Source: an uncultured Monoglobus sp. (GTDB taxonomy: Bacteria > Bacillota > Clostridia > Monoglobales > Monoglobaceae). From it: a DNA stretch of 64,000 bases. The notes beneath the pieces are model-generated. The model was not told the origin of the DNA. It saw only the letters and a program-made list of their open reading frames with translations, and made no database searches. Numbering within the stretch: the first letter of the stretch is position 1; each line of letters opens with the position of its first letter. Location: positions 1,287 to 65,286 of the forward strand of contig CANRGH010000009.1 of NCBI GenBank assembly GCA_947630135.1. Direction: 5' to 3'. This document shows, one piece after another, positions 5,856 through 59,124 of this stretch. Both the position numbers and the translations under genes were made by a program.

Positions 5856-8800
5856 TTACAAGCTCACCTCTACATACTCCGCCAGAGGTTCTAATCTATC
5901 AAGATTGTCCCATACAAACACTTTTACATAAGCAGCGTTTTTCAGGTTTAATTTCAATATAATATTATTAGTTTCTCCGGGCAATGTCGTAATATCAGCT
6001 GACTTTATATCGGTAAGTACGTTATCACTCGAATAAGAACCGACAATCAGTTTAGCACCAAATCCTAAAATATTGCTTACGCTTACATTGACATTTTCAT
6101 CTAAGAAAGTTAAATCGTTTATAACATATACCATATTGTCGATGGGTTCAGTCGTAGGCTCTGCAGTCGGTTGGATTGTAGGCGTTTCAGTGGAAGAGGC
6201 ATTCGGACTTGTCGTGGGTTTCGCAGTCGGACTTGCCGCAGGCGTTGCAGTCGGACTTGTCGTGGGCGTTACAGTTGGACTCGCCGTAGGTGTCGCAATT
6301 GGACTTGCCGTGGGCGTCACAGTCGGACTTGCCGTAGGCGTCACAGTCGGACTTGTCGTGGGCATTACAGTTGGACTTGCCGTAGGTATCGCAGTTGGAC
6401 TCGCCGTAGGTGTCGCAATTGGACTTGCCGTGGGCGTCGCGGTCGGAGTTACCAAAGGCGTCACAGTCGGACTTGCTGTTGGTGTAGCCGTAGGAGCTAT
6501 TGTCGGTGTAGCAGTCGGACTTGCTGTGGGCTTTACTATGGGCGTAGCCGTTGGAGCCACTGACGGCGTAGCACTCGGACTTGATGTTGGAGCAGTACTT
6601 GGACTTACCATAGGCGCAGCGCTCGGACTTGTTGTAGGTAAAACCGATGGAAATGCCGAAGGCAAAGTAGAAGGTCCTGTTGTTGGCATTTCTGACGGCT
6701 GCATAGTCGGCTCGACATATGTTTCATCAGGAATCCACTTTGCATATAATACCACGCTTTGAGTTAATGGCTGATTTTCATATGGATAATGATATTCATC
6801 ATCAAAATACCACCCATCAAATATAAATCCATTTTTTTGTGGCATAATTTCACTATTTGCACTTTCGTTTTCTTTTATTGTTTGGCTTTGAACGCCACTG
6901 CCTCCCATAGTGTCAAAATCAACCGTGATATCGGTTCCGATAACCTTTAATTCGAAGGATTTTATCTTATGAGCATCGCCGTTTGATATTGTAGCAGTCA
7001 TAGATACATGCTGCGTTTCATCAGGTCTGCTTACAACGCCATCAGAATTTATAATATTTTCATTATTAGATTCCCATGTAATGATACTTCCATATAACCC
7101 GCCAGATTCCAATTCAATATTAGATCGCACATTATTGGCATTCTCGCCGGCTGAGTAACCAATTTTTGTATTATTGGTATCAAGATCAATTCGGCTTTGA
7201 TTATTATTATATTCCGCCAATGGCTCAAGAGTTTCACCACTATCATCTATGCCGATTATTGTATCTGATGTAATTGTATATATTATTTTTTTGTCATTTT
7301 TATTTTGGTAAGCTAAAGAATAAACATCGCCGTCATGATTTACGATGGTAACAATCGAAGGATGTGTTTGATTGACAGCAACTATTTTGATAGTTTTATC
7401 AAGAGTCGTAACACAAACGGAACTGTTTTCGTTATCGCGTGTTACTGTAAACTCATCATGATCGGACATAACTGCCATACTTGCGAGTGATATGAAATTT
7501 TGCTTATAACCATCGACTGGATTATAATAACCTAATGTACTATTATTTGAATCTTGTATTTCAAATGAGTCATCCTTATGAAATGTATACTGAATTTGAT
7601 AGTTATTTGATTTGTCATCCATTGTCAATTCTTCTGCCCAATATTCTACTACGGATTTACGCAATGAATTTATATCCATTAATTGAATCTGCGCCGTATT
7701 ATTTGAAAGCGACATCAACTCGAGTCTGTCCACGCCGTCCACTAAATTTCCATTTGTATTATACCAATTCTGCATAAGATTATTGGCAAAAGAGCTGCTT
7801 TCATATTCGCCGCTGTTTATTAACATGATCCAATCAATATAATCAACTATATCACCATTGCTATCAACTATTTTATTATAGATATTGGGAGCATTATGTT
7901 TAAAATAATAATTTATCATAAAATACTGTGCGGATTTTACGTTATTAATTGTTTCAAACACTTTTTGTCCCAATTTAAGAAGCTGAACTTCAAAGAGAGT
8001 ATTTGGAGCAAACTGTGCTATAAGACTAGTTGACTTAAAGTCCGAAATGTATGACTTTGTTGCGGAAGCGGCCTCCTGAATAACAGCGACCGATTTATAT
8101 TGATCGCCAAGGTCATTTATGAATGTTTTAAATACTTCACTTGCTACTGTTTTCGCTGACTTGCTTTTCAACTCCTCGTATACATCACTCGGTATACCAG
8201 ATAAAGAACCCAAGCCGCTATCCTTCCAAGCTGCTATTGATTCGGTCATTTGGCTATATAACTCATTTATTCCGCCTTCTTCCAAAATCATTTCAACATC
8301 TGGAATTAATTGTGACTTTGTAACTTTATACACATATTTCCCTGCTGTGTTAACAAGTTTTTGGGAGTAAATATTATAAATCACGGTTGCCATCGGATTC
8401 CGTTCAACACTGCTTATATATTCGGTATACTCCGCCGTTATCTTCTTAATCTTATCGGTTGTTTTATTAAGATCAATCACATCGACATTTTTAAGATATT
8501 CGTCTTCCCATAAGTTAACACTTTTAAGTGTGGAGTTGAGCATAATGATATCGCGCATAATATCATAAGTAGTATACTCATCGGCTGTCAATGCCATAGA
8601 ATTATCCATATATACGGTGGTAGGCATATATTTATTAATAATTTCCTGTGCTTCATAAGGTGTTATAGCAGCATCATAACCAAACTCTTTCGCCCACTCG
8701 TATAATTCCTCGGCGTATTCTGATTTTTTAGTTGATGGTGTGCCGGGGAGAGTTTTATCTTCGATTACATAAAACTTTTTGGGATATGACAATCTTACAT

Positions 8801-10766
8801 GATAAGGGTCATAAGTATCACCGGGATTATTTTCCTCGATGTCTGAATTATTATCGGGACCGTTGCTATTATAATGAATTGTTACATTATCTATAGAATC
8901 TTCATATGTCACCACAATCGAATCCCATTCTTCTTTACTGCCTTCATAATATATATCAGTAAGATTTGAGCATCCTCTGAAAGCGCTGGTATAAATTTCT
9001 CCTACGCCTCTATGTATAATCAAATATTTTAAATCATAACAAGCGCGAAATTCTAAATGTCCCAGACATTTTAGGCTTCCAGGAACTTCTATTGCTGTTA
9101 ATTCTTCACAATGATAAAACGGCCAAATAGACAAATCTGTTACAGTATTAGGAATTGTATATTTACCGGATTTACCTTCTGGGCAACAATATAATACCGT
9201 TTTAGTTTTATTGAATAATACACCATCATCTGATGAATAATATTGGTTATTTTCAGACACATTAATTGTCTCTAAAGAAGTGCAATTCTCAAACACATTA
9301 TATCCGCCATTTATATCATTTACGTTATCGGGAATCGTAATTTGTTGCAGTTTCCTACATTCATTAAACGTCCAAACGTCAATTATTTTTAAACTGTTGG
9401 GTAAAACAATATTTTCCAAAGATGAACAATGATCAAAAGCTTGTCGTTTAATTTCTTCAACTCCTTCGGGAATAATAATATTTTTTATGCTTGTGCAATT
9501 CATAAAAGCAAATTCATTGATTAATTTAATTTTACCAAAAAAGTTAACATTTTCCAACAATTCACACTTTTTGAACATATTGTCGGAAAGGACATCATTA
9601 TATAAATTAACTGTTTTTAAATTTGTACACTCCTCAAAAAGGCTGTATCCAACACTTGTAACGCTTTTTGGTATACTAGCAATTAATAAATTGCGACAAT
9701 ACGAAAAGGCACTATAATCTATATTGACAACATTTTCAGGAAGATCTATATATAATATTCCAGTACTACGAAATGCGTTATTTCCTATATTAATAAGATT
9801 TTGTGGGAAATTGACAATGGTTAATTTTTTGCACTCCTGAAATGCACAATCGCCAATATCTGTAACTCCATTAGGTATATCAATACTTTCTAATTTGTAG
9901 CAATATCTAAATAGACCCGCATTTATTTTAGTAATTTTGCTGGGCAACTTAATACTAATAATATTTTCGCATTTACGAAAGGCATAGCTGTCAATATTTA
10001 TAACACTTTCAGGAATTATTAATGATTTTAAACCTGTGCATTCATCAAATGCACCATATTCTATAGTCTCAACATTTCCGGATATATTAATATTTGTTAA
10101 TTTTGTATCATAGCTAAATGCATACTTTCCTATGACTTTTACACTTTCGGGAATATCAAATGTATCGGAAGTAGATTTTGGACATCCAATTATCTTTGTT
10201 AAATCTTTATTATATAACACATTATTTCGTACAGAAAAACACTCATTATTGGAATCAACTTTTATTTCAATCAAATTATTACAATTGTAAAAGAAATTGC
10301 CGTCTATCGTTTTCACATTTTCCGGAATATATAAATTTGTTAATTTATCACAGTCATAAAATGCACCTGTTTCTATATGCTCTAAGTTATCGGGCAAATC
10401 AACAGTTGTTAAGTTATCACAGTCGTCAAATGCATGACTGCCTATTTTTATTATTGTATCAGCAAAAACTACACTAGTAAGTCTATTACACCAGTTAAAT
10501 GCATTTTTCCCAATGCTCGTTACTCCATCTTCGATTACCACTTTAGAAATACGACTATGATACCAATTAGGCACACCATCTGTATCCGACATTTCGCCTG
10601 TACCACTGATTGTGAGAGTGCCAGTTTCATCTAATGTCCAAGTTAAATTGTCACCATCAATACCGCATGTACCACTTGATACGGCATTTGCATGTGTTGG
10701 CACAAAAATAATTGTGCCTATCAGTATCAACGACAATAACAAACTTATAATCCTTTTCATAAACAT
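5856..10766 (-). CDS. Large secreted BspA/TpLRR leucine-rich-repeat surface protein (LRR1). Order: signal peptide, N-cap, LRR array, unknown central region, atrophied Ig-like domain, InlB B-repeat, PT/S linker, C-terminal FxW domain
   Basis: Repeats of the form IPxxVxxIxxxAFxxCxxL; GSIITWESNN...VSRP; FDTMGGS...GFIFDGWY...LYAKW; RBS AGGAG. Confidence 0.88.
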   Translation of the reverse strand: MFMKRIISLLLSLILIGTIIFVPTHANAVSSGTCGIDGDNLTWTLDETGTLTISGTGEMSDTDGVPNWYHSRISKVVIEDGVTSIGKNAFNWCNRLTSVVFADTIIKIGSHAFDDCDNLTTVDLPDNLEHIETGAFYDCDKLTNLYIPENVKTIDGNFFYNCNNLIEIKVDSNNECFSVRNNVLYNKDLTKIIGCPKSTSDTFDIPESVKVIGKYAFSYDTKLTNINISGNVETIEYGAFDECTGLKSLIIPESVINIDSYAFRKCENIISIKLPSKITKINAGLFRYCYKLESIDIPNGVTDIGDCAFQECKKLTIVNFPQNLINIGNNAFRSTGILYIDLPENVVNIDYSAFSYCRNLLIASIPKSVTSVGYSLFEECTNLKTVNLYNDVLSDNMFKKCELLENVNFFGKIKLINEFAFMNCTSIKNIIIPEGVEEIKRQAFDHCSSLENIVLPNSLKIIDVWTFNECRKLQQITIPDNVNDINGGYNVFENCTSLETINVSENNQYYSSDDGVLFNKTKTVLYCCPEGKSGKYTIPNTVTDLSIWPFYHCEELTAIEVPGSLKCLGHLEFRACYDLKYLIIHRGVGEIYTSAFRGCSNLTDIYYEGSKEEWDSIVVTYEDSIDNVTIHYNSNGPDNNSDIEENNPGDTYDPYHVRLSYPKKFYVIEDKTLPGTPSTKKSEYAEELYEWAKEFGYDAAITPYEAQEIINKYMPTTVYMDNSMALTADEYTTYDIMRDIIMLNSTLKSVNLWEDEYLKNVDVIDLNKTTDKIKKITAEYTEYISSVERNPMATVIYNIYSQKLVNTAGKYVYKVTKSQLIPDVEMILEEGGINELYSQMTESIAAWKDSGLGSLSGIPSDVYEELKSKSAKTVASEVFKTFINDLGDQYKSVAVIQEAASATKSYISDFKSTSLIAQFAPNTLFEVQLLKLGQKVFETINNVKSAQYFMINYYFKHNAPNIYNKIVDSNGDIVDYIDWIMLINSGEYESSSFANNLMQNWYNTNGNLVDGVDRLELMSLSNNTAQIQLMDINSLRKSVVEYWAEELTMDDKSNNYQIQYTFHKDDSFEIQDSNNSTLGYYNPVDGYKQNFISLASMAVMSDHDEFTVTRDNENSSVCVTTLDKTIKIVAVNQTHPSIVTIVNHDGDVYSLAYQNKNDKKIIYTITSDTIIGIDDSGETLEPLAEYNNNQSRIDLDTNNTKIGYSAGENANNVRSNIELESGGLYGSIITWESNNENIINSDGVVSRPDETQHVSMTATISNGDAHKIKSFELKVIGTDITVDFDTMGGSGVQSQTIKENESANSEIMPQKNGFIFDGWYFDDEYHYPYENQPLTQSVVLYAKWIPDETYVEPTMQPSEMPTTGPSTLPSAFPSVLPTTSPSAAPMVSPSTAPTSSPSATPSVAPTATPIVKPTASPTATPTIAPTATPTASPTVTPLVTPTATPTASPIATPTASPTAIPTASPTVMPTTSPTVTPTASPTVTPTASPIATPTASPTVTPTTSPTATPAASPTAKPTTSPNASSTETPTIQPTAEPTTEPIDNMVYVINDLTFLDENVNVSVSNILGFGAKLIVGSYSSDNVLTDIKSADITTLPGETNNIILKLNLKNAAYVKVFVWDNLDRLEPLAEYVEVSL
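6202..6640 (-). repeat. About 18 degenerate 24-bp tandem repeats encoding (PTASPTAT)-like 8-aa units
   Basis: Recurring GTCGGACTTGCCGTGGGCGTCACA-like unit on the + strand. Confidence 0.9.
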
Positions 10767-10777
10767 ACAACTCCTAA

Positions 10778-10935
10778 ATTAAAAATGCGCGGTGTGAAAT
10801 CACAGCCGCGCAAATAATAAAAACGCAGCTTGATTTCTGTTGCGACACAGTTCATACCGAATCAAGTACGATAATCAACGCTTGCGCTTTTATCAAGCAC
10901 AAACTTGATTCGGTAAATCATTAACTATGCCGCAA
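10778..10935 (-). promoter_or_regulatory. Structured 5' leader ending in an intrinsic terminator (candidate attenuator or riboswitch)
   Basis: 13-bp stem at 10903-10915/10855-10867; terminator GCGCGG-C-TGTGA-TT-TCACA-CCGCGC-ATTTTT just before the RBS. Confidence 0.7.
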
Positions 10936-10939
10936 ATTA

Positions 10940-10968
10940 AATATATCATATCTCAATATAAATAGCAA
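10940..10968 (-). promoter_or_regulatory. SigA promoter of LRR1
   Basis: TTGCTA-17-TATATT with extended TG. Confidence 0.6.
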
Positions 10969-16442: not shown

Positions 16443-16519
16443 GGACCTTTAGCTCAGTTGGTTAGAGCAACCGGCTCATAACCGGTCGGTCCGGGGTTCG
16501 AGTCCCTGAAGGTCCACCA
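16443..16519 (+). tRNA. tRNA-Ile2 (CAT anticodon, lysidine type)
   Basis: Cloverleaf with anticodon loop CT-CAT-AA and encoded CCA; the GGACCTTTA acceptor stem matches the Bacillus Ile2 type as I recall it; elongator Met not fully excluded. Confidence 0.85.
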
Positions 16520-16688: not shown

Positions 16689-16772
16689 TGGTGCGGGCGA
16701 CAGGACTTGAACCTGCACGGGAAGCCCACCAGATCCTAAGTCTGGCGCGTCTGCCAGTTCCGCCACGCCCGC
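16689..16772 (-). tRNA. tRNA-Leu (TAG)
   Basis: GCGGGCGTGGCGGAACTGGCAGACGCG-CCAGA-CT-TAG-GA-TCTGG, long variable arm, CCA end. Confidence 0.95.
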
Positions 16773-20846: not shown

Positions 20847-20935
20847 TGGCGGACGGGGTGGGATTCGAACCCACGTGCCGTTTCCGACAAACTGATTTCG
20901 AGTCAGCCCCGTTATGACCACTTCGATACCCGTCC
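20847..20935 (-). tRNA. tRNA-Ser (CGA)
   Basis: GCTGA-CT-CGA-AA-TCAGT anticodon arm, long variable arm, GGTTCGAATCC, CCA. Confidence 0.95.
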
Positions 20936-39716: not shown

Positions 39717-39745
39717 TTTACAAATTAATCCTAATATGTTATAAT
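39717..39745 (+). promoter_or_regulatory. SigA promoter upstream of the LRR2 leader
   Basis: TTTACA-17-TATAAT with extended TG. Confidence 0.75.
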
Positions 39746-39751
39746 AATTGC

Positions 39752-39964
39752 GCTACATGTCTTAAATATTGTGTTTGTGCCATTATTGTGTATATGGTTT
39801 TATTTTCATATTTTCGGAATCCGTTTGCGAAAATGCAGACTCGAACAATTCCGAAAATGTGTAACATAGACACAATAGGTTTTAAGATGTGTAGCAGCAT
39901 AAAGTTCGAGCTGTGTTTTTATATTTTTGCGCAGCCGCGATCTCTTGGCTGCGCTTTTTATTTT
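39752..39964 (+). promoter_or_regulatory. Structured 5' leader ending in an intrinsic terminator (candidate attenuator, riboswitch or sRNA)
   Basis: Nested stems 39752-39766/39881-39895, 39767-39774/39870-39877 and 39810-39820/39848-39858; terminator GCGCAGCC...GGCTGCGC-TTTTTATTTT. Confidence 0.7.
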
Positions 39965-40040
39965 CTGTCAAAAACATGGACGCGGCAAGAACGTTCGAAA
40001 AAATATATTAATAATTATAATATACATGGAGGCAAGACAA

Positions 40041-42848
40041 ATGAATAAAAGGCTCAAAAGTATCGTATTGGCGCTTTTTATACTCTGCACGGCACTGCCC
40101 GACGGAATAAAAGCGTATGCCGCGGAGCAATACGAAACTGCGGAAACATCCCTTGTTGATGAAGCCGCGCTGTCGGACGGCTCGGCGGAGACCGCCGAAG
40201 TGGTCGACGGTATCACCTTGGAATACGACTCAACAAGCACCGAGTACACCAAGCTGGTACATGTGCGCTATAACGCTTCAAAGTTCACAAAAGGAATAAG
40301 CCGCTTTAAGATCATACTGAGGATTTTGGGCGGAAGCGTGGCAAGCGTCGACTATAAGACCGAATTTTCGTCAAGGTTCAGAATAAACGGCTCTTATTCT
40401 GGCGGCATTTACACAATAAGCGGCTCGTCAAGCTCGGCGGAGGTTCCCGGCGACGGCTGCTTGTTCACCGCCGTTCTGAACCTTTCAGACGCGCTGACCG
40501 CGCCGATCGCGATAAGCATCACAGGAGACACATATCTGGGCGATCCGACAACCGCTTATTATCTCAGCAACGGCGGTTTGAGCGACGCGTCAACCGAGAT
40601 ACCGATAATGAGCGGCCAAGCGGGCTGGACGACCGACACATCCGGCACAATAGGAAACGTGGTTTGGGCGTACAGCAAAAACACTCTGACTCTAAGCGGC
40701 GAGGGCAACATGCCCGACTTCACGGCGGGAACCGCTCCGTGGTACAAAAACGGAAAAAACCTCATCAAGCATATCGTGTTCACCGATAACAGCAATATAG
40801 TGTCCGTCGGTGCTTACGCGTTTTACGGCTTGAGCGCGCTTGAGGACGTCACATTCGTTGATAAGATCAACACGGTGGGCCGGAACTCTTTTGAAGGCTG
40901 CTCGTCTCTCAAAGAACTGAACATTCCCACCAACATGCACGCCGGAATTGGCGAGGAGGCATTCAAAGACTGCGTCTCTATAAATGAGATATTTATACCG
41001 AACGGCATGCTCGCCGTCAGCAAAGGCGCGTTTAAGGGCTGCACCGGCCTCAACAAGATAACAATGCCGTTTATCGGCTCGCAGGTCGGAACCTCTAACA
41101 ACACCAACACGTTCGTCTATCTTTTTGACGGTTATGTTCCGATGAGCCTCAAGACGGTCGTTATAACAAATGAGACGGATATTCCCGCGGAGGCCTTCAA
41201 AGGCTGCTCGGGCATAACATCGATCACGATAAATCCCGAGATAAAAACTGTGGGCGTGTCGGCCTTTGACGGCTGCTCGTCGCTCGGCACATTTAATATT
41301 CCCGACGGCGTCTCCGTTATAAACGACAACACATTCAGAAATTGCTCATCTATCCGCTCGATAACCGTGCCCGACACGGTGCGGGCTATCGGAGAAGGCG
41401 CGTTTGACGGCTGCGCTTCGCTCGGCTCGATACATATTCCCGAAAGCGTTACCGAAATAAAGAATTACACATTCCGCGGCTGCGCGTCGCTGACAGAGAT
41501 CAAAATCCCCTCGGGCGTCACCTCGATCGGCGAGGAAACGCTCAAAGGCTGCTCAAGGTTAACGAGCATTGTCATACCTTTCGTCGGCGCGTCATACAGA
41601 CCGGGTCTGAGCGAGATCACGCATGCCGGAGTGTTCGGCTATCTGTTCGGAAAGTCAACGTCGCAGACCGCGACTAGGCAGGGAAACGACAGTTATGAGA
41701 TCCCGACGTCCGTCACAAAGGTTGAGATCACAAACATCGACTCGAGAGCCTACATACCTCCCGGCGCATTCATCAACTGCTCGAATATCGCGGACATCAT
41801 AATCGACGGCGGCGCCACGGTATGCGCCGAGGCCTTCAAAAACTGCCGCAACCTGAAAAATCTGTACATTCCGAAATCTATTGACGAGATCCAGCGCGAT
41901 ATACTTTACGGATGCACGAGCCTCGTGACTCTGACCGTGCCCTTTGTCGGAAACAGCAGAACAGACTTAAATCATGAGACCTCGGTTCTCGGATATTTCT
42001 TCGGTTTTGGCGACAATCGCGAGAACGAGACCGACATAATCCAGTATTACAACGAAAACGACTTCCATTACTATTTTGTGCCGGAGTCTCTGAAGAACGT
42101 TTCGGTGCTCAATAAAACAAACATACCTTACGGAACGTTTATGAACTGCCGCTACCTTGAAAGAGTGTCAATAGTCAGCGGCGCGGTGATAAACGCCCAC
42201 GCGTTTTACAACTGCGTGTCTTTGAAGCAGGTATCGCTGCCTTCAAACCTGACCGAGATCGGATATGAGACATTCGCGGAATGCGCGGCGCTTGAGACGA
42301 TCAATCTCCCCGCGGTAAGGAACCTTAAGTTAGGCGACTACGCGTTCTACAACTGCACGGGTCTTCGGAACATAACTATCCCGCCCAACGTAAAATCGAT
42401 CTCCGAGAGCGCGTTCATCGGCTCGGCGATCGGGGCGGCCGACACCGCCGAAGCTGCTGCAAGCGACGTGCTGACCATTTATTGCGAGAGCGGCTCATAC
42501 GCCGAGGAATACGCCAAAGCAAACGGAATAAAATATGAGATCGCACAAAAGGGCGAACTGAACATTATAAAAACAATGACAAGCGTGAGCCGCCTGTCTG
42601 ACGGCGCGTATCTGTTCGATGTGACCGACTCAAATCTGATGAGCGGAACGGTGTTCGCAGCGCTCTACGACAAAAACGGCGCGCTGATAAGCGCGCAATG
42701 CGCTCCCGCAGAGGCTGCAGCGGACGCGAGATTTATTTTCAGTGCCGAAGATTATCAGAACGCGGCCGAAGCCAAAGCCTTCATCTGGAGCGGAACCGAC
42801 ACTATAACGCCGAAGACCACCGAAGCGGAGATCATCGAGCTTAGATAA
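40041..42848 (+). CDS. Secreted BspA-like LRR surface protein (LRR2) with a cohesin-like N-terminal module and a C-terminal FxW domain
   Basis: Start at 40041 after GGAGG; signal peptide; LRRs with PF(I/V)G insert repeats. Confidence 0.87.
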   Translation: MNKRLKSIVLALFILCTALPDGIKAYAAEQYETAETSLVDEAALSDGSAETAEVVDGITLEYDSTSTEYTKLVHVRYNASKFTKGISRFKIILRILGGSVASVDYKTEFSSRFRINGSYSGGIYTISGSSSSAEVPGDGCLFTAVLNLSDALTAPIAISITGDTYLGDPTTAYYLSNGGLSDASTEIPIMSGQAGWTTDTSGTIGNVVWAYSKNTLTLSGEGNMPDFTAGTAPWYKNGKNLIKHIVFTDNSNIVSVGAYAFYGLSALEDVTFVDKINTVGRNSFEGCSSLKELNIPTNMHAGIGEEAFKDCVSINEIFIPNGMLAVSKGAFKGCTGLNKITMPFIGSQVGTSNNTNTFVYLFDGYVPMSLKTVVITNETDIPAEAFKGCSGITSITINPEIKTVGVSAFDGCSSLGTFNIPDGVSVINDNTFRNCSSIRSITVPDTVRAIGEGAFDGCASLGSIHIPESVTEIKNYTFRGCASLTEIKIPSGVTSIGEETLKGCSRLTSIVIPFVGASYRPGLSEITHAGVFGYLFGKSTSQTATRQGNDSYEIPTSVTKVEITNIDSRAYIPPGAFINCSNIADIIIDGGATVCAEAFKNCRNLKNLYIPKSIDEIQRDILYGCTSLVTLTVPFVGNSRTDLNHETSVLGYFFGFGDNRENETDIIQYYNENDFHYYFVPESLKNVSVLNKTNIPYGTFMNCRYLERVSIVSGAVINAHAFYNCVSLKQVSLPSNLTEIGYETFAECAALETINLPAVRNLKLGDYAFYNCTGLRNITIPPNVKSISESAFIGSAIGAADTAEAAASDVLTIYCESGSYAEEYAKANGIKYEIAQKGELNIIKTMTSVSRLSDGAYLFDVTDSNLMSGTVFAALYDKNGALISAQCAPAEAAADARFIFSAEDYQNAAEAKAFIWSGTDTITPKTTEAEIIELR

Positions 42849-42883: not shown

Positions 42884-45800
42884 ATGAAAAAAATTAAAAA
42901 CAAAGCATTATGTTTGATTATGGCAATGATTATGACGGCGCTTACGATCCCCGCCGCCGCTATCGCCGCGGAAGATAATGGCCCACAGCAGGAAAATTCC
43001 GTATATGACTCACCCGCATTAACCGACGAGCACTCTGCTGACGAATACGCCGTAGACGAGCACGCCGTAGACGAATACGCCGAGGCGGCCGCAACCAACG
43101 GCGTTTGCGGCGAAAACTTAACATGGTCATACAGCGGCTATACCTTAACCATTAGCGGAACCGGCCCGATGTATGATTTTCAAGATAGTGCTCCTCCATG
43201 GAGCAAATTCAGCGCCCTGTTCCCGGGTGATATAAAAAAAGTTATCATTAGCGACGGTGTGACTTCGATCGGCCATAATGCGTTTGATAACTGCAGTTTG
43301 CTGACAAGCATAACAATACCAAACAGCGTGACTTCGATCGGGAGTCGTGCGTTTCTTGCTTGTGATTCGCTGACAAGCATAACAATACCCGACGGCATGA
43401 CTTCGATCGGTGATGGTGCGTTTTGGGCCTGCAGTTCGCTGAAAAGCATAAACATACCCGACAGCGTAACTTTGATCGGCGAACTGGCGTTTACATATGC
43501 AGCTTTATCCAGAATAAATGTTGCGGATAATAACCCAAATTACACATCAAAAGACGGTGTTCTTTTTACCAAAGATATGTCAACGCTCGTATGTTATCCG
43601 CCGAAAAAAATGACATCCGATTCGTACAACATACCAACCGGCGTGACTTCGATCGGCGATCATGCGTTTATGAAGTGCGATTCGCTGACAAGCATAACAA
43701 TACCCGACAGCATGACTTCGATCGGTTATGAGGCGTTTTATAGGTGCAGTTCGCTGGCAAACATAAATATACCAAGCAGCGTTACTTCAATTAGTAATAG
43801 TGCGTTTTATTGCTGCTATTCGCTGACAAATATAACTATACCAAGCAGCGTGACTTCAATTGGTAATAGTGCATTTCAAAGCTGTATATCATTGAAAAGC
43901 GTTACCATATTTAATTCGGAAGTCTCTTTATTAGGTAACGCTGTATTTAATGATTGTCCTTCGGATATTGTGATCAGAGGCGTCAAAGGCTCAACAGTCG
44001 AGGAATACACATATGCAAACAATATTACATTTAATGCTTTGGGATATATTTCTCTTGAGCTCATAGACAATGACGACAGCGATAGCCTGACGGATTTCCG
44101 CATAGCGGCCGCGCTTAACGGTTTCAGCGCTCCGGACAGCGTGAATATCGCGCTCAGTCTGCCGAAGGGAGCGCAGGTAAATGCGAGTACGCCGACAGCC
44201 GGCGCGGAAGGCCTGCTCACCGTCGAGGACGACGGCAGCGTTTCATATCTTCTCACCTTGCCGGAAACTCCGGTCTCCGACGGCGTTATCGCCGAGTTTG
44301 ATATTAAGCTTGAGAGCATGCTTGTCAAACTGTTTGAAGCGGAGCTGCTTGACGGAACCTATGTTATGTCCGGCGAGGAGACATTAAGCATTTCGGACGG
44401 CTCGCTTATGCCCGCCTCACTGACTCTGCCCGTCGGTCTTGAGAGCGGCACGGGCGGCACAACCGGCGGCTTTAGCTGGGACTTTACCGGCGACACGCTG
44501 TATTTAAACGGAACCGGCGAGCTTCCGGATTATGAGGAAGGCGGCGCGCCTTGGTTCTACGGCGCGAGCCAGATAAAGCACATTGTTTTCATGAACAACG
44601 CGGTGACGGCAATAGGAAAAAACGCGTTTTTCGGCTTGCATAACGTGATCGACGCGAATATGCCCTCCGGGCTGCTGGCCGTCGGCGAAGGCGCGTTCAA
44701 CGGCTGCAAGAGCCTTCAGAGCGTTGACTTTACCGAAAACATGAGCGAGGGCATAGGCGCGAGAGCGTTTAAGAACTGCTCATCATTAACCGAGATATAC
44801 GTTCCCGAACGCGTCAGCGTTATAGGCGAGGGCGCGTTTGAGGGCTGCGCGGGACTCACCGCCATCACTCTTCCATTTGTCGGATCACAAGTGGGAAGCC
44901 TTAACAACACCGACACCTTTAATTACATATTCGGCGGCGCCGCGCCCGAAAATCTCACCACTGTCACGATAACCAACGAGGTGAGCCTGCCGCAAAGCGC
45001 TTTTGAAGGCTGCGGTCATATTAAAGAGATCAATCTGCTGACCGATATGCAGGACATAGGCGAGGCGGCTTTCAAAGACTGTGAATCACTCGAAAAATTC
45101 GATATTGACAACGGAATAACCACGATCAGAGATTACACCTTCCAAAACTGCGCCTCGATCACTTCGATAACCGTGCCCGACACAGTGCAGAATATAGGCG
45201 AGTCGGCGTTTGACGGCTGCAAGAGCCTTCAATCGGTGCATATCCCCGACGGAATAACAATAATCAGAAACAGGACGTTCAAAGACTGCGCCTCGATCAC
45301 GTCGATCGAAATACCCGAAAGCGTTACCGCCATAGGCGAGGAAACACTCAAGGGCTGCATAAGACTTCGGACGATGGTGATCCCGTTTGTCGGCTCGTCA
45401 TATAACCCCGGCATGAGCGGCATCAATTACGAAGGAGTTTTCGGATACTTTTTCGGCAAGTCAACGTCGGAGACCGCGACAAAGCAAGGCAGCGACAGCT
45501 ATGAGATACCGCCGGCCGTGACAAAGGTCGAGGTGCTGAACACGGATCCGTCGTCATACATACCGCCGGGCGCGTTCATCAACTGCTCGGGCATAGCGGA
45601 CATTCTGATAGACGGCGGAGCGAAAGTATACGCGGAAGCCTTCAAAAACTGCCGCAACCTTAAAAATCTGTATATACCCAAGTCGATAGACGAGATAAAA
45701 TCGGACATACTCTACGGATGCACAAGTCTTGAGACGCTGACCGTGCCGTTTACCGGAAGCGACAGAAACGATCTGAACACCGAGACATCGGTTCTGGGCT

Positions 45801-46732
45801 ACTTCTTCGGCTACGGGCCCGAGACAAACGTAACCGACGTTAAGCAGCAGTACAGCAGCAACAGCAATGACACGCACTTCTACTACATACCGCGCTCGCT
45901 GAAGAATGTGTCTGTGCTCAACAAGACAAATATATCCTACGGAACGTTTATGAACTGCCGCTATCTTGAAAGCATATCAATAGTAAGAGGCGCGGTGATA
46001 GACGAAAAGGCGTTTAACAACTGCTCGGCGCTTGTGAACGTGTCGCTGCCTTCGGATCTGACAGAGATCGGCTATGAGGCCTTCGCGGAGTGCGCGAACC
46101 TTAAAACGATAAACCTGCCGTTCACGAACACAAGCCTTGAAATAGGGGACTACGCGTTTTACAACTGCCTTAACCTTGAAGAGATAAGAGTTCCGTCAAA
46201 TGTCACCCGGATCGCGGACAAGGCGTTTATCGGCTCAAATATATTCCGCACGAGAGCCGCGGACGCGGCCGAGGCAGCGGCTGACGCGCCGATATTCTAT
46301 TGCCAGTCGGGCTCATACGCGGAGGAATACGCGATCCAAAACAACATCAATTACGAGACGATAAGCGCAGACGAGCTGAACGTCAAAACAACGTCGACGA
46401 CTGTGAGCGCGCTGTCGGACGGATCGTGCCTGTTTGACATAATAGACACGAGCGGACTCGGAAGAGGCGTGTTATTCGCGGCGCTTTACGACAGCGAGGA
46501 TAATTTGCTGAAGACCGAAACGCGGACTGTAAAGACCAATGACGCGGTTGAAACAAGAATAGAGATGCCGAAGTCGGAATGGTACGACAGCGGAGCCGCA
46601 TACGCAAAGATATTCCTTTGGGACAGCGTTGACGAGATGACACCGCTTTCAACCACGGTCGAGCAGATAGAGATGAGCCAAGTCAGACAAGAATACGAGT
46701 CCATGCCCGTCCCCGAAACTCCCGACATTTGA
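42884..46732 (+). CDS. Secreted BspA-like LRR surface protein (LRR3): an extra N-terminal LRR block plus a paralogue of LRR2
   Basis: Signal peptide; GVCGENLTW cap; IPDSVTSIGxxAFxxC repeats; second cap GGFSWDFTGDTLYLNGTGELPDY. Confidence 0.88.
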   Translation: MKKIKNKALCLIMAMIMTALTIPAAAIAAEDNGPQQENSVYDSPALTDEHSADEYAVDEHAVDEYAEAAATNGVCGENLTWSYSGYTLTISGTGPMYDFQDSAPPWSKFSALFPGDIKKVIISDGVTSIGHNAFDNCSLLTSITIPNSVTSIGSRAFLACDSLTSITIPDGMTSIGDGAFWACSSLKSINIPDSVTLIGELAFTYAALSRINVADNNPNYTSKDGVLFTKDMSTLVCYPPKKMTSDSYNIPTGVTSIGDHAFMKCDSLTSITIPDSMTSIGYEAFYRCSSLANINIPSSVTSISNSAFYCCYSLTNITIPSSVTSIGNSAFQSCISLKSVTIFNSEVSLLGNAVFNDCPSDIVIRGVKGSTVEEYTYANNITFNALGYISLELIDNDDSDSLTDFRIAAALNGFSAPDSVNIALSLPKGAQVNASTPTAGAEGLLTVEDDGSVSYLLTLPETPVSDGVIAEFDIKLESMLVKLFEAELLDGTYVMSGEETLSISDGSLMPASLTLPVGLESGTGGTTGGFSWDFTGDTLYLNGTGELPDYEEGGAPWFYGASQIKHIVFMNNAVTAIGKNAFFGLHNVIDANMPSGLLAVGEGAFNGCKSLQSVDFTENMSEGIGARAFKNCSSLTEIYVPERVSVIGEGAFEGCAGLTAITLPFVGSQVGSLNNTDTFNYIFGGAAPENLTTVTITNEVSLPQSAFEGCGHIKEINLLTDMQDIGEAAFKDCESLEKFDIDNGITTIRDYTFQNCASITSITVPDTVQNIGESAFDGCKSLQSVHIPDGITIIRNRTFKDCASITSIEIPESVTAIGEETLKGCIRLRTMVIPFVGSSYNPGMSGINYEGVFGYFFGKSTSETATKQGSDSYEIPPAVTKVEVLNTDPSSYIPPGAFINCSGIADILIDGGAKVYAEAFKNCRNLKNLYIPKSIDEIKSDILYGCTSLETLTVPFTGSDRNDLNTETSVLGYFFGYGPETNVTDVKQQYSSNSNDTHFYYIPRSLKNVSVLNKTNISYGTFMNCRYLESISIVRGAVIDEKAFNNCSALVNVSLPSDLTEIGYEAFAECANLKTINLPFTNTSLEIGDYAFYNCLNLEEIRVPSNVTRIADKAFIGSNIFRTRAADAAEAAADAPIFYCQSGSYAEEYAIQNNINYETISADELNVKTTSTTVSALSDGSCLFDIIDTSGLGRGVLFAALYDSEDNLLKTETRTVKTNDAVETRIEMPKSEWYDSGAAYAKIFLWDSVDEMTPLSTTVEQIEMSQVRQEYESMPVPETPDI
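43025..43084 (+). repeat. Four 15-bp tandem repeats (DE[HY][SA][AVE])
   Basis: GACGAGCACTCTGCT GACGAATACGCCGTA GACGAGCACGCCGTA GACGAATACGCCGAG. Confidence 0.9.
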
Positions 46733-51862: not shown

Positions 51863-51914
51863 TTAACCTGTGTTGTTTTTAAAAATGATTACCAATAATA
51901 TAAGGAGAAATGAA

Positions 51915-54230
51915 ATGGACAACAATTTGGACGCAAGAATTAAAGACGTCGCGGAGCGAATTAAGACGCTTCGCGAGATCATCGGCATGAGCGAGGAGAC
52001 CGCGGCCGAAAAGACCTCGGTCAGCCTTGAGAAGTACCGCATGATCGAAAAGGGCGAAAGCGATTTCAGCTTTTCGTTCATCTGCCTGTGCGCGAGAGTG
52101 TTCGGCGTTGACGTTACCGACCTGCTCGAGGGCCAAAGCGCCACGCTTTCGGGCTATGAACTGACTCGCGCGGGCGAGGGCATGAAGATCGTGCGCCGCA
52201 AGGAGTTTGAGTACAACAACCTCGCTCCTTATTTCAAGAACAGAATAGCGGAGCCCTTCCTTGTTACCGCGCCTTTTTCCGAGGCCGAGCAGCACAAGGA
52301 GATCAAGCTTGCCAAGCACGAGGGTCAAGAGCTTGACATAGTTGTCAGCGGAACCCTCAAGATACAGATAGGCAAGAACATTGAGACCTTAAACGCCGGC
52401 GACAGCATTTACTATGACAGCAAAACGCCCCACGGCATGATCGCGGTGGGCGGCGAGCCCTGCGAATTTTACGCCATGGTATTCACGGGCGGCAGAGAGA
52501 CGAACTATATCGAGGACGTTGACATGCCTGCCGTCAAGCCTCTTCCGAAAAGAGAGGAAACAGGACACAGGATATATGACGATTACGTTAAAATGGGCTT
52601 TGACGAGAACGGTGTTATCAATTCGATCAAGTTCATTGACGAGGAAAAGTTCAACTTCACATTTGACATAGTTGACAAAATGGCGCAGCGCGACCCCGAC
52701 AAGCCCGCCATGCTGTGGCTTTCCAAGGACAAGGAAGAACGCCTTTTCACCTTCTCGGATATGAGCAAGCTTTCGGCGCAGGCCGCGCACTACTTTAAGT
52801 CCCTGGGCATCAAGAAGGGCGACAGGGTAATGCTCGTACTCAAGCGTCACTATCAGTTCTGGATCGCAATACTGGCCCTGCACAGAATAGGCGCGATCGT
52901 TATCCCCGCCACCAACCTTCTGGTCGAGCATGACTTTGACTACAGATTTAAGGCCGCGGGCGTATCGGCGATCGTCTGCACCGCCGACGGCGACACCGCA
53001 CATCAGGCGGAGCTCGGCGCGAACAACTGCGACTTTGATATCCTCAAGATCATCGTTAACGGGAACCGCGAAGGCTGGCTGAACTTCGACGAGGGAATAA
53101 AAGAATTCAGCGACGTGTTCGAGCGTCCGACCAATCCCGACGAGACGGCCTGCGGCAGCGAGATAATGCTGATGTATTTCACCTCCGGAACGACCGGTTA
53201 CCCCAAGATCGCGGCGCAGAGCCACAAATACCCCCTGGGCCATTTTCTGACCGCCAAGTGCTGGCACAACGTTAACCCGAACCGCAACGGTCTGCACTTC
53301 ACGATCTCCGACACCGGCTGGGGCAAAGCTCTCTGGGGCAAGCTCTACGGCCAGTGGATGAGCGAGGGCGCGACGTTTACATACGACTTTGACAAGTTCC
53401 ACGCCGAGGATATTCTTCCTCTGTTCGCGAAATATAAGATCACAACGTTCTGCGCGCCGCCCACAATGTTCAGGTTCTTCATCAAAGAGGACCTTGGCAA
53501 GTATGACCTGTCGTCGATCGAATACGCGACCACGGCAGGCGAGGCGCTTAACCCCGAGGTTTACAACCAGTTCTTCAAGCACACGGGTCTCAGAATAATG
53601 GAGGGCTTCGGCCAGACAGAGACGACGCTTGTTCTGGGCAACTTCGTCGGCATGGAGCCCAAGCCCGGCTCAATGGGCAAACCCAGCCCGCTTTATAAGG
53701 TTGAGATCCTTCTGCCCGACGGCAAGCCCGCGGGAGTTGGCGAGGTCGGCGAGATCTGCATAAACACGAAGGACGGAGCACCCTGCGGACTGTTTACCTG
53801 CTATTACAACAATGACGAGCTTACGCGCGAGGCATGGCATGACGGCTATTACCACACGGGCGACACCGCGTGGAGAGACGAGGACGGCTATTTCTGGTAT
53901 GTCGGCAGGACTGACGACGTTATCAAGTCCTCGGGCTACCGCATCGGCCCCTTTGAGATTGAGAGCGTTATCATGGAGCTCCCCTACGTTCTGGAGTGCG
54001 CGATAACTGCCGCTCCCGACCCGATCCGCGGTCAGGTAGTAAAGGCCACGATCGTTCTCGTCAAGGGCAAACAGGGCAGCGACGAGCTCAAGAAAGAGAT
54101 CCAAAACTATGTGAAAAAGCACACCGCGCCTTATAAATACCCGAGAATTGTGGAGTTTGTTGACGAGCTTCCCAAGACCATAAGCGGCAAGATAAGACGC
54201 GTTGAGATCAGAGAAAACGACAAAGCGTAA
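51915..54230 (+). CDS. XRE-HTH / cupin / acyl-CoA synthetase (AMP-forming, ACSM-like) fusion protein
   Basis: AERIKTLRE...IEKGESD HTH; HEGQE...LNAGDSIYYDSKTPHG cupin; YFTSGTTGYPK, EGFGQTET, YHTGD, PKTISGKIRR. Confidence 0.88.
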   Translation: MDNNLDARIKDVAERIKTLREIIGMSEETAAEKTSVSLEKYRMIEKGESDFSFSFICLCARVFGVDVTDLLEGQSATLSGYELTRAGEGMKIVRRKEFEYNNLAPYFKNRIAEPFLVTAPFSEAEQHKEIKLAKHEGQELDIVVSGTLKIQIGKNIETLNAGDSIYYDSKTPHGMIAVGGEPCEFYAMVFTGGRETNYIEDVDMPAVKPLPKREETGHRIYDDYVKMGFDENGVINSIKFIDEEKFNFTFDIVDKMAQRDPDKPAMLWLSKDKEERLFTFSDMSKLSAQAAHYFKSLGIKKGDRVMLVLKRHYQFWIAILALHRIGAIVIPATNLLVEHDFDYRFKAAGVSAIVCTADGDTAHQAELGANNCDFDILKIIVNGNREGWLNFDEGIKEFSDVFERPTNPDETACGSEIMLMYFTSGTTGYPKIAAQSHKYPLGHFLTAKCWHNVNPNRNGLHFTISDTGWGKALWGKLYGQWMSEGATFTYDFDKFHAEDILPLFAKYKITTFCAPPTMFRFFIKEDLGKYDLSSIEYATTAGEALNPEVYNQFFKHTGLRIMEGFGQTETTLVLGNFVGMEPKPGSMGKPSPLYKVEILLPDGKPAGVGEVGEICINTKDGAPCGLFTCYYNNDELTREAWHDGYYHTGDTAWRDEDGYFWYVGRTDDVIKSSGYRIGPFEIESVIMELPYVLECAITAAPDPIRGQVVKATIVLVKGKQGSDELKKEIQNYVKKHTAPYKYPRIVEFVDELPKTISGKIRRVEIRENDKA

Positions 54231-58852: not shown

Positions 58853-59124
58853 AGTCATGTGCTTGCGTTCGAAACAGCTCTACAAGCGTTACTCACACAG
58901 TTAGCTCGGATTTAGCGCCCTCACGGCACATCGGAGTAACTGCTTATCGCTGCTGCGTTCCCGCCCTGACGAGGTTCACAGGTTCCGATTGCGTAAGACC
59001 AAACCGTCAACACCACTTATGCGAGGCAGACCAAACAAAGATGTTCCTCAGACGCAAGTTTTCATCCCCTCTGTAGCGGATTGAGGGTTACAAGGCACCG
59101 CTAACGCCCCGATTTAACATGACT
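58853..59124 (-). ncRNA. ffs: Signal recognition particle RNA, large (Alu-containing, Bacillus-type)
   Basis: About 270 nt with paired ends (AAGTCATGT/ACATGACTT); helix 8 GTCAGG-GCG-GGAA-CGC-AGCAGC; 5' Alu-like region; directly upstream of dnaX; own TTGACC-17-TAAAAT promoter at 59130-59158. Confidence 0.93.

Follow-up and report, generated by a model that had tools for sequence, protein, structure and literature searches.

A family of structured leader RNAs with features of a four-region transcription attenuator precedes surface-protein genes in Monoglobus and other Clostridia

Two adjacent genes for BspA-type leucine-rich repeat (LRR) proteins, LRR2 and LRR3, lie on the forward (+) strand of a 64,000-nucleotide (nt) stretch, here called the window, of contig CANRGH010000009.1 from an uncultured Monoglobus sp. 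LRR2 (40041-42848, 935 aa; Pfam LRR_5, E = 2.5e-95) encodes a protein with an N-terminal signal peptide, LRR3 (42884-46732, 1282 aa; LRR_5, E = 4e-158) comes next, and uvrB and uvrA come after the pair. A search with the N-terminus of LRR2 returned distant generic LRR_5 relatives only. In front of LRR2 is a structured leader which a preliminary description of the DNA had interpreted as the second copy of a switch, made of four segments (seg1 to seg4) and a modular sensor, that is also found in front of a third gene of this type, LRR1. We find that both leaders belong to a family of homologous RNAs, and that their architecture points to cis-acting transcription attenuation. The earlier observations were thus confirmed in part and the earlier interpretation supported in part: the switch was retained, while the exchangeable sensor and the role assigned to seg1 were not.

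The LRR2 leader (all coordinates on the + strand) is preceded by a sigma-A-type promoter at 39717-39745, consisting of TTTACA, a 17-nt spacer and a TG-extended TATAAT (11/12 matches), as had been described, and the geometry of this promoter predicts transcription start at about 39749-39752. The first part of the transcript would be a 5' hairpin domain (39749-39899) and putative sensor; the hairpin is indicated by its predicted fold, its inverted repeats and the covariation of its basal helix, P1. P1 is formed by an inverted repeat (39752-39766 paired with 39881-39895), within which two further inverted repeats are nested (39784-39796 with 39865-39877, and 39804-39820 with 39848-39864). The apical element GUUUGC-GAAAAU-GCAGAC (39823-39840) is a degenerate version of the A/U-rich apical hairpin of the family, G-N-UAAAAA-YRC-A, and a bulge on the 3' side carries the strand CAG-a-CUCGAAC (39836-39846), which we designate region 1, the candidate anti-antiterminator strand, with its partner at 39904-39913. 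Directly 3' of P1 follows a single-stranded element of the RRCA type, AGCAGCA (39893-39899), which includes seg1 (39894-39898).

The downstream half of the leader contains the elements of an expression platform. Region 2 (39904-39916) consists of a linker plus seg2 (GUUCGAGCUGUGU; seg2 at 39909-39916) and can pair with either region 1 or region 3. It is followed by a U-rich tract that would form the antiterminator loop (39917-39928) and by an intrinsic terminator hairpin (39929-39954) with a stem of 9 bp, 7 of them G-C pairs. Region 3 (39929-39943) covers the 5' strand and loop of the terminator and includes seg3 (39929-39936), region 4 (39946-39954) includes seg4 (39947-39954), and the terminator U-tract, TTTTTATTTT, occupies 39955-39964. 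The ribosome-binding site GGAGG (40028-40032) and the LRR2 start codon (ATG at 40041) lie within 40028-40043, and the spacing from terminator to start codon is 80 nt. The nested repeats, the inner GTTTGC/GCAGAC hairpin, the four segments and the 9-bp terminator with its T-run are therefore all present as first described. The transcript 39748-39966 is predicted to fold with -76.3 kcal/mol, compared with -47.5 +/- 4.1 kcal/mol in dinucleotide shuffles (z = -7.0; 0/200). The LRR2 copy is elongated and somewhat degenerate, with additional inserted helices relative to most family members and a hairpin of 144-151 nt as opposed to 90-126 nt.

The sister leader lies on the minus strand at 10776-10968, before LRR1 (5856-10766, minus strand; product of 1636 aa). 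Its promoter has a -35 element at 10963-10968 and a -10 element at 10940-10945; P1 pairs 10923-10933 with 10842-10852, the apical hairpin is at 10883-10901 and region 1 at 10873-10882, followed by the RRCA element (10837-10841), region 2 (10823-10836), the terminator (10786-10812) and its U-tract (10776-10785). The ribosome-binding site of LRR1 (10771-10775) is immediately 3' of the U-tract, outside the leader span. This leader, too, is unusually stable (fold z = -6.9), and the earlier claim that the two LRR leaders have a terminator/antiterminator expression platform in common is borne out. The consensus proposed for it, AGCTGYGTTTTTAN(5-8)GCGCRGC, has two matches in the window (at 39909 on the + strand and at 10805-10830 on the minus strand) against an expectation of 0, and an nhmmer search with the family profile found no window copies beyond these two leaders. 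The sensor of LRR1 had been placed between seg1 and seg2, that of LRR2 upstream of seg1. We find the same order in both, with the hairpin starting at +1 and followed by the RRCA element, linker, seg2 and terminator. Contrary to the suggestion of exchangeable sensors, the upstream domains are also homologous in LRR1, LRR2 and all relatives, which have in common the P1 base GC..ACA/UGU..GC, an AAUA element in junction J1/2, the apical G-N-UAAAAA-YRC, an AGGCUCU-type bulge and RRCA.

Homologs were collected with pattern scans, which yielded at least about 37 leaders, 30 of them non-redundant (7 from genomes, at least 17 from metagenomes and 13 from IMG/VR; member loci are designated by L numbers). 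They come from Monoglobus-like and other Clostridia metagenome-assembled genomes (MAGs), gut and rumen metagenomes, and IMG/VR contigs. The scan of species-representative genomes used a pattern spanning seg2, seg3 and seg4 and returned 8 loci, 7 of which are genuine and belong to Monoglobus, Candidatus Ornithomonoglobus, 'Clostridia', Ruminococcaceae and Bacillota MAGs (rabbit gut, goat rumen and others); the eighth, in a Parvularculaceae genome, was rejected as a chance match. With seg3 and the terminator stem left free, a looser pattern gave at least 120 metagenome loci, about 100 of them chance matches; at least 17 clear members are among the matches listed, including human-gut and cow-rumen contigs. 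Three scans of IMG/VR used patterns that specified the apical motif only, and each of the 13 further members found in this way bears all other features of the family. These 13 members are on contigs classified as viral (possibly misclassified bacterial DNA), one of which, IMGVR_UViG_3300045988_164796, has two copies (L140 and L147).

The family appears to be outside Rfam. Rfam 15, which includes the T-box, c-di-GMP-I/II, ydaO, PyrR, 6S and L10/L20 leader families, gave no match at gathering thresholds at the leaders of the window or of 20 member loci, and relaxed scans of these gave only sub-threshold generic hairpin or terminator matches (best 23.6 bits against a cutoff of 58.7). The same run recovered a genuine T-box (118.5 bits) in L116:65-292 on the minus strand, opposite to the family member at that locus, a positive control for the search. 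No description of the motif turned up in full-text literature searches.

All members have the same plan: promoter, P1, P2, apical hairpin, 3'-side bulge, RRCA, linker, seg2, U-run and terminator. The promoter is of the sigma-A type with a 17-nt spacer and usually a TG-extended -10 element, and it ends 5-7 nt 5' of the hairpin base, so that by promoter geometry the hairpin is predicted to start at about +1 to +3. The promoter, the G+C-rich terminator hairpin and the U-tract are found in the window copy and in all members. P1 is 11-16 bp long and has the form GC-NN-ACA... / ...UGU-NN-GC. Beyond it is an internal loop, asymmetric and with conserved AAUA-type sequence on its 5' side, and then P2, whose sequence is different in almost every member and whose pairing is nevertheless retained. 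The apical hairpin is A/U-rich with a conserved 3' strand, G-N-UAAAAA-YRC, in which the A-run and the following C are invariant or nearly so. The 3'-side bulge has 12-20 nt, typically AGGCUCU...(U-rich)...CAUAC, and could form a small extra hairpin in some members. Conserved RRCA, a 3-9-nt linker and seg2, (R)AGCUGYG in most members, follow 3' of P1, and at least 5 U residues come after seg2 in all members (L001b has CA and then the U-run); this U-run may be a pause site.

MAFFT and RNAalifold applied to full leaders recovered P1 only, as a result of the variable stem lengths, and covariation was instead assessed by anchored mini-alignments and RNAduplex permutation tests. In the anchored alignment of P1 (24 members), 96.7% of cells are paired, 8 of the 12 pairs have changed on both sides and none of 500 shuffles matches this; shifting the register by 1-3 columns reduces pairing from 96.7% to 33%-50% of cells. 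Two leaders, L160 and L178, look chimeric, with a P1 5' strand of the GCCAAAC type and a 3' strand of the GUGUCGC type that leave mismatches in P1, and are probably recombinants between subtypes. At L001:4830-5260 two complete tandem units of different subtypes, each with promoter, hairpin and terminator, precede one LRR gene. The upstream unit has GUGUGUGGUU/ACCACACAC as seg3/seg4 and an antiterminator made mostly of G-U pairs.

The helix between regions 2 and 3 (2:3), that is, the antiterminator, joins linker and seg2 to the 5' strand and loop-side part of the terminator. It had been described as an interaction of seg2 with seg3; its full length is 10-15 bp, with covariation among 30 relatives. 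Within region 2 it is the linker that varies, and its changes are matched in the terminator loop: L005, for example, has AUUGAAGCUGCG opposite UGCGCGGCUUCAAC, and L071 and L116 have CAAAUGAGCUGUGU opposite GCGUGGCUCAUUU. Among the 30 non-redundant members, cognate 2:3 duplexes average -15.94 kcal/mol compared with -12.94 kcal/mol for permuted ones (z = -6.2, 0/50,000). In members found through the apex alone, seg2 is altered (GGGCUAUGUG, AAGCUAUGUA, AGAGUCAUGCG) and seg3 has matching changes (UGCGUAGCU, GCGUAGCUU, CGUGUGGCU). The preliminary description had called the 2:3 differences between LRR1 and LRR2 compensatory. The two substitutions (C-G to U-G and U-G to U-A) are indeed there, but they are one-sided wobble changes, and true double changes in this helix occur in the wider relatives only. 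Across the family, antiterminator hairpins (-11 to -19 kcal/mol) and terminators (-12 to -20 kcal/mol) are of comparable stability, and the minimum free energy fold of the whole leader adopts the antiterminator in 16 of 24 members.

Region 2 has a second partner. Its linker and the 5' half of seg2 are complementary to the bulge near the apex (1:2 pairing), and it is this bulge, 39836-39846 in LRR2, and not seg1, that is the conserved partner of seg2. The LRR2 duplex, CAG-a-CUCGAAC (39836-39846) with GUUCGAG-CUG (39904-39913), has 10 bp and an RNAduplex energy of -13.8 kcal/mol as opposed to -6.5 kcal/mol for non-cognate linkers. The LRR1 counterpart pairs AGC-g-UUGAUU with AAUCAAGCU, and further matched pairs are GGCUUUGCUU with AAGCGAAGCU (L037), CCAUC/GAUGG (L063), CUCUCG/CGAGAG (L111) and GCUC-u-UAAUUG/CAGUUA-GAGC (L094). 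Family-wide, cognate 1:2 duplexes have -11.25 kcal/mol versus -9.39 kcal/mol for permuted ones (z = -5.7, 0/50,000). The negative control, pairing of the bulge with region 3 (1:3), gave no cognate signal (p = 0.66). When region 2 was slid along the whole hairpin, the bulge zone gave the best complement in 19 of 24 members, compared with about 26% expected from length, and no part of the LRR2 hairpin complements region 2 better than the stretch 39836-39846.

The genes downstream are biased toward secreted proteins. Associations were counted over about 22 distinct loci, and about 16 of the 22 downstream proteins have signal peptides. LRR_5 genes are found at 9 of the roughly 22 loci: both window loci, L001, L006, L031, L048, L060, L071 and L120 (the last also with an SLH domain). 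Other downstream genes encode DUF6273 proteins (L003, L005), a dockerin protein (L070) and a CHAP/ChW/lectin protein (L007); that of L002, which was outside the Pfam scan, reads as a similar secreted amidase-like protein. Several loci have unannotated lipoproteins or secreted proteins, a few have membrane or cytoplasmic proteins without assigned function, and one locus type (L039, L093) has a DrrA-like ABC ATPase. The proposed enrichment of LRR and surface proteins thus holds, but LRR genes are not the only ones that the element precedes. A downstream open reading frame (ORF) was called for 22 curated leaders, and in 17 of them its start codon is 13-40 nt past the curated leader end, with the ribosome-binding site a few nt earlier. 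These spacings leave no room for a separate promoter, so these genes must be transcribed by read-through, and this is the main argument for a role in cis.

Leaders of the LRR1 type are near-identical in Monoglobus and Clostridia MAGs (L001, L003, L008), which is in keeping with a Monoglobales-like origin of the window, and promoter, leader and signal peptide (MKRI(I/L)SL...IISTIIFVP) are kept together as a block (window 10752-10968, minus strand, compared with L001, L003 and L008). The passenger domains behind the block differ, being LRR_5 in the window and L001 and DUF6273 in L003, which suggests cassette exchange by recombination. The LRR1 gene (window 6000-10000) has a G+C content of 0.33-0.40 compared with about 0.50-0.57 in the rest of the window, which may reflect recent acquisition or repeat composition.

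We consider it probable that these leaders constitute a family of cis-acting transcription attenuators, outside Rfam, that operate as a four-region switch. Transcription from the strong, presumably constitutive sigma-A promoter would yield an RNA whose first ~150 nt fold into the long hairpin domain, comprising P1, the internal loop, P2 and the conserved A/U-rich apical hairpin with its 3'-side bulge. Region 2 (39904-39916) would emerge next, single-stranded, with two mutually exclusive partners. Pairing with region 1, as a pseudoknot-type anti-antiterminator, would allow helix 3:4 to form, with termination at the U-tract and release of a ~210-nt RNA; with region 1 unavailable, the 2:3 antiterminator would form instead, leading to read-through into LRR2-LRR3 and an mRNA capped by the 5' hairpin. 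Since region 1 is located in the only part of the hairpin with conserved unpaired nucleotides, we infer that a putative effector, which could be a small ligand or else an RNA-binding protein, recognizes the conserved apex and bulge and, by promoting or preventing 1:2 pairing, sets the balance between the two states. The weak 1:2 helices of many members (4-6 bp) would suit an OFF state stabilized by a ligand or protein. The 5'-terminal hairpin would also shield the read-through mRNA from 5'-end-dependent decay.

Several points weigh against this proposal. The start site, termination and read-through are predictions from sequence. In several members the 1:2 helix comprises only 4-6 bp around a palindromic AGCU core. 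Its geometry is demanding, as region 2 begins 4-12 nt 3' of the base of P1 and the bulge is 25-45 bp up the stem; because the bulge is so far up, the contact would need a sharp fold-back at the conserved internal loop that bends the rod toward region 2, and the stem of the LRR2 copy is even longer than that of other members. The LRR2 terminator (-16.4 kcal/mol) is clearly stronger than its antiterminator (-11.8 kcal/mol). The 80-nt spacer of LRR2 has a perfect TATAAT (40016-40021) with a poor -35 element, so that LRR2 may have its own promoter. The preliminary description had allowed for such a promoter at 39994-40021; it falls below the scan threshold, with only 3/6 matches in the -35 element. 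The sample was gathered by patterns and is phylogenetically narrow, and the conserved unpaired elements (A-run and C, AGGCUCU, CAUAC, AAUA and RRCA) comprise few invariant positions. Lastly, the downstream genes hint at no particular ligand. As a cis switch, the LRR2 copy is less certain than the LRR1 copy.

A more specific version of the attenuator proposal, which we put forward only tentatively, is that the family represents a new orphan riboswitch class, with a small signalling molecule or ion as the ligand of the apical three-way region and bulge. Binding would act by way of the pseudoknot anti-antiterminator on a regulon of adhesin-like surface proteins. Monoglobales and their relatives among gut and rumen Clostridia would have this regulon, with members of the family also on phage-like contigs, and the abundant terminated leader might in addition act in trans through region 2 on mRNAs with promoters of the extracytoplasmic function (ECF) type.

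An alternative that we regard as unlikely, though it accounts for several observations, is that the unit is a stand-alone gene for a trans-acting small RNA (sRNA) of ~150-210 nt, with a protective 5' hairpin, region 2 as its seed and a terminator, located beside its targets, read-through being incidental or a second role. The unit does come with a strong promoter of its own and with a terminator that looks efficient; L001 has one complete unit directly before a second promoter and a second unit, and L116 is without an adjacent ORF. In four IMG/VR members (L133, L139, L146 and L147) a promoter, TGAACC-N17-GTCTAAT, which we take to be of the ECF type, lies ~90 nt past the terminator, and the 5' untranslated region (UTR) that would result is complementary to the 3' end of P1 and region 2 (-25 to -27 kcal/mol, z ~ -6.5). 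The segment concerned, CAUAAGCCCUUUGUCGCC, ~90-150 nt past the terminator, is a near reverse complement of these elements. At sister loci L134, L143 and L149 the downstream gene encodes an ECF sigma factor (Pfam) that is extended at length at its C-terminus. The spacer of LRR2 may contain a weak analogue of this feature of the viral-contig subgroup: besides its TATAAT, it has a weak complement of region 2, a possible 'region 5' (GGACGCGGCAAGAAC, 39978-39992, + strand; -17.4 kcal/mol, z = -2.7 against shuffles), which was not recovered when a broader region 2 and downstream window were used (best duplex elsewhere, z = -1.1). Such a complement is absent downstream of most members, however; the 17 closely spaced leaders leave their genes expressible by read-through alone, and the covariation of region 2 with the 5' strand and loop of the terminator is predicted by a cis switch and unneeded for a seed. 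A dual cis and trans function of the leader is possible.

Less probable still is a constitutive 5' stabilizer hairpin with a leaky terminator and no sensing, in which the hairpin protects long surface-protein mRNAs and the terminator sets their level. The hairpin begins ~0-3 nt from the predicted start site in all members, 5'-terminal stem-loops stabilize Firmicutes mRNAs such as those with aprE, ermC and S-layer gene leaders, and downstream genes that suggest no ligand fit this explanation as well. A plain stabilizer would nevertheless leave unexplained both the conserved unpaired elements (AAUA, G-N-UAAAAA-YRC, AGGCUCU...CAUAC and RRCA) and the 1:2, 2:3 and 3:4 complementarity with its cognate-specific covariation.

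The model of the preliminary description, in which seg1, as part of the 3' strand of the basal stem, is a competitor for seg2, the switch flips when the stem opens and unrelated sensors sit on a common platform, is very improbable. In LRR2, GCAGC (39894-39898) can pair with GCUGU (-7.5 kcal/mol, z = -1.9), and a 5-6-bp equivalent of seg1 is present in members of the GCAGCA type (L009, L031, L063 and L111). Over the family, however, seg1/seg2 complementarity is no better than in shuffles (mean z = -0.6) and amounts to 3 bp at most in 11 of 24 members; P1, which would have to open, is the best-supported helix, and the sensor domains are homologous and not exchangeable. Other candidates were rejected as well: an inverton or miniature inverted-repeat transposable element (the repeats are nested through the whole element as a hairpin and are not terminal only, and the window has no more than two copies, whose stems differ but are compensated), a leader peptide (a conserved small ORF would not tolerate the compensatory stem changes and the indels in P2) and 6S RNA (no Rfam match at the leaders).

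With regard to known systems, the proposed attenuator is closest in logic to the PyrR-controlled pyr leaders of Bacillus and the 1-2-3-4 arrangement of the trp leader, which likewise have mutually exclusive 1:2, 2:3 and 3:4 pairings 5' of an intrinsic terminator and an anti-antiterminator as the likely control point. In contrast to these, region 1 is here a bulge in a long 5' hairpin and the 1:2 pairing is of the pseudoknot type and not a simple hairpin, with no leader peptide, no evident PyrR-type binding motif and no Rfam match. Pseudoknot-dependent transcriptional riboswitches such as ZTP/pfl also place a structured domain first, have a downstream strand that joins either this domain or the expression platform, and keep their conserved nucleotides unpaired in loops and junctions; the present family differs in preceding surface-protein genes and not enzymes or transporters of one pathway, and in a domain that is mostly variable helix with few invariant positions. 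The cyclic di-GMP riboswitches (GEMM-I/II) of Clostridioides difficile are similar as terminator-ending Clostridia leaders before secreted or adhesin-like genes, with several copies per genome, but their Rfam models gave no match at gathering or relaxed thresholds and their architecture is different. T-box leaders share the long 5' stem with an important 3'-side internal loop followed by competing antiterminator and terminator; however, the Rfam T-box model is silent at the family leaders, which lack the T-box sequence and precede genes unrelated to amino-acid metabolism. The stabilizers of aprE, ermC and S-layer mRNAs resemble the family in having a stable hairpin at the extreme 5' end of abundant mRNAs for secreted or surface proteins, whereas the hairpin described here has conserved loops and is coupled to a terminator switch. 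The regulatory principle is therefore familiar, but the RNA family is new, and the placement of its anti-antiterminator and its surface-protein regulon are unusual.

Gut Clostridia interact with their hosts, dietary fibre or other microbes mainly through BspA-type LRR proteins and other large secreted proteins, and to our knowledge almost nothing is known about the regulation of such proteins in Monoglobales and other uncultured lineages. An RNA switch common to many of these genes would define a surface-protein regulon and give a handle on the signal to which it responds, be it a ligand or an RNA-binding protein. A linker that covaries with two, and sometimes three, partners would also make a clean system for the study of co-transcriptional folding decisions.

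Elsewhere in the window, a 786-aa protein encoded at 51870-54230 (+ strand) combines HTH_3, cupin and AMP-binding (adenylate-forming) enzyme domains, an unusual fusion of regulator and enzyme. The window also contains a bacterial large signal recognition particle RNA (58855-59122, minus strand; 185.9 bits), whose large form is consistent with an origin in Bacillota, and three tRNA genes, at 16443-16516 (+ strand), 16692-16772 (minus strand) and 20850-20935 (minus strand).

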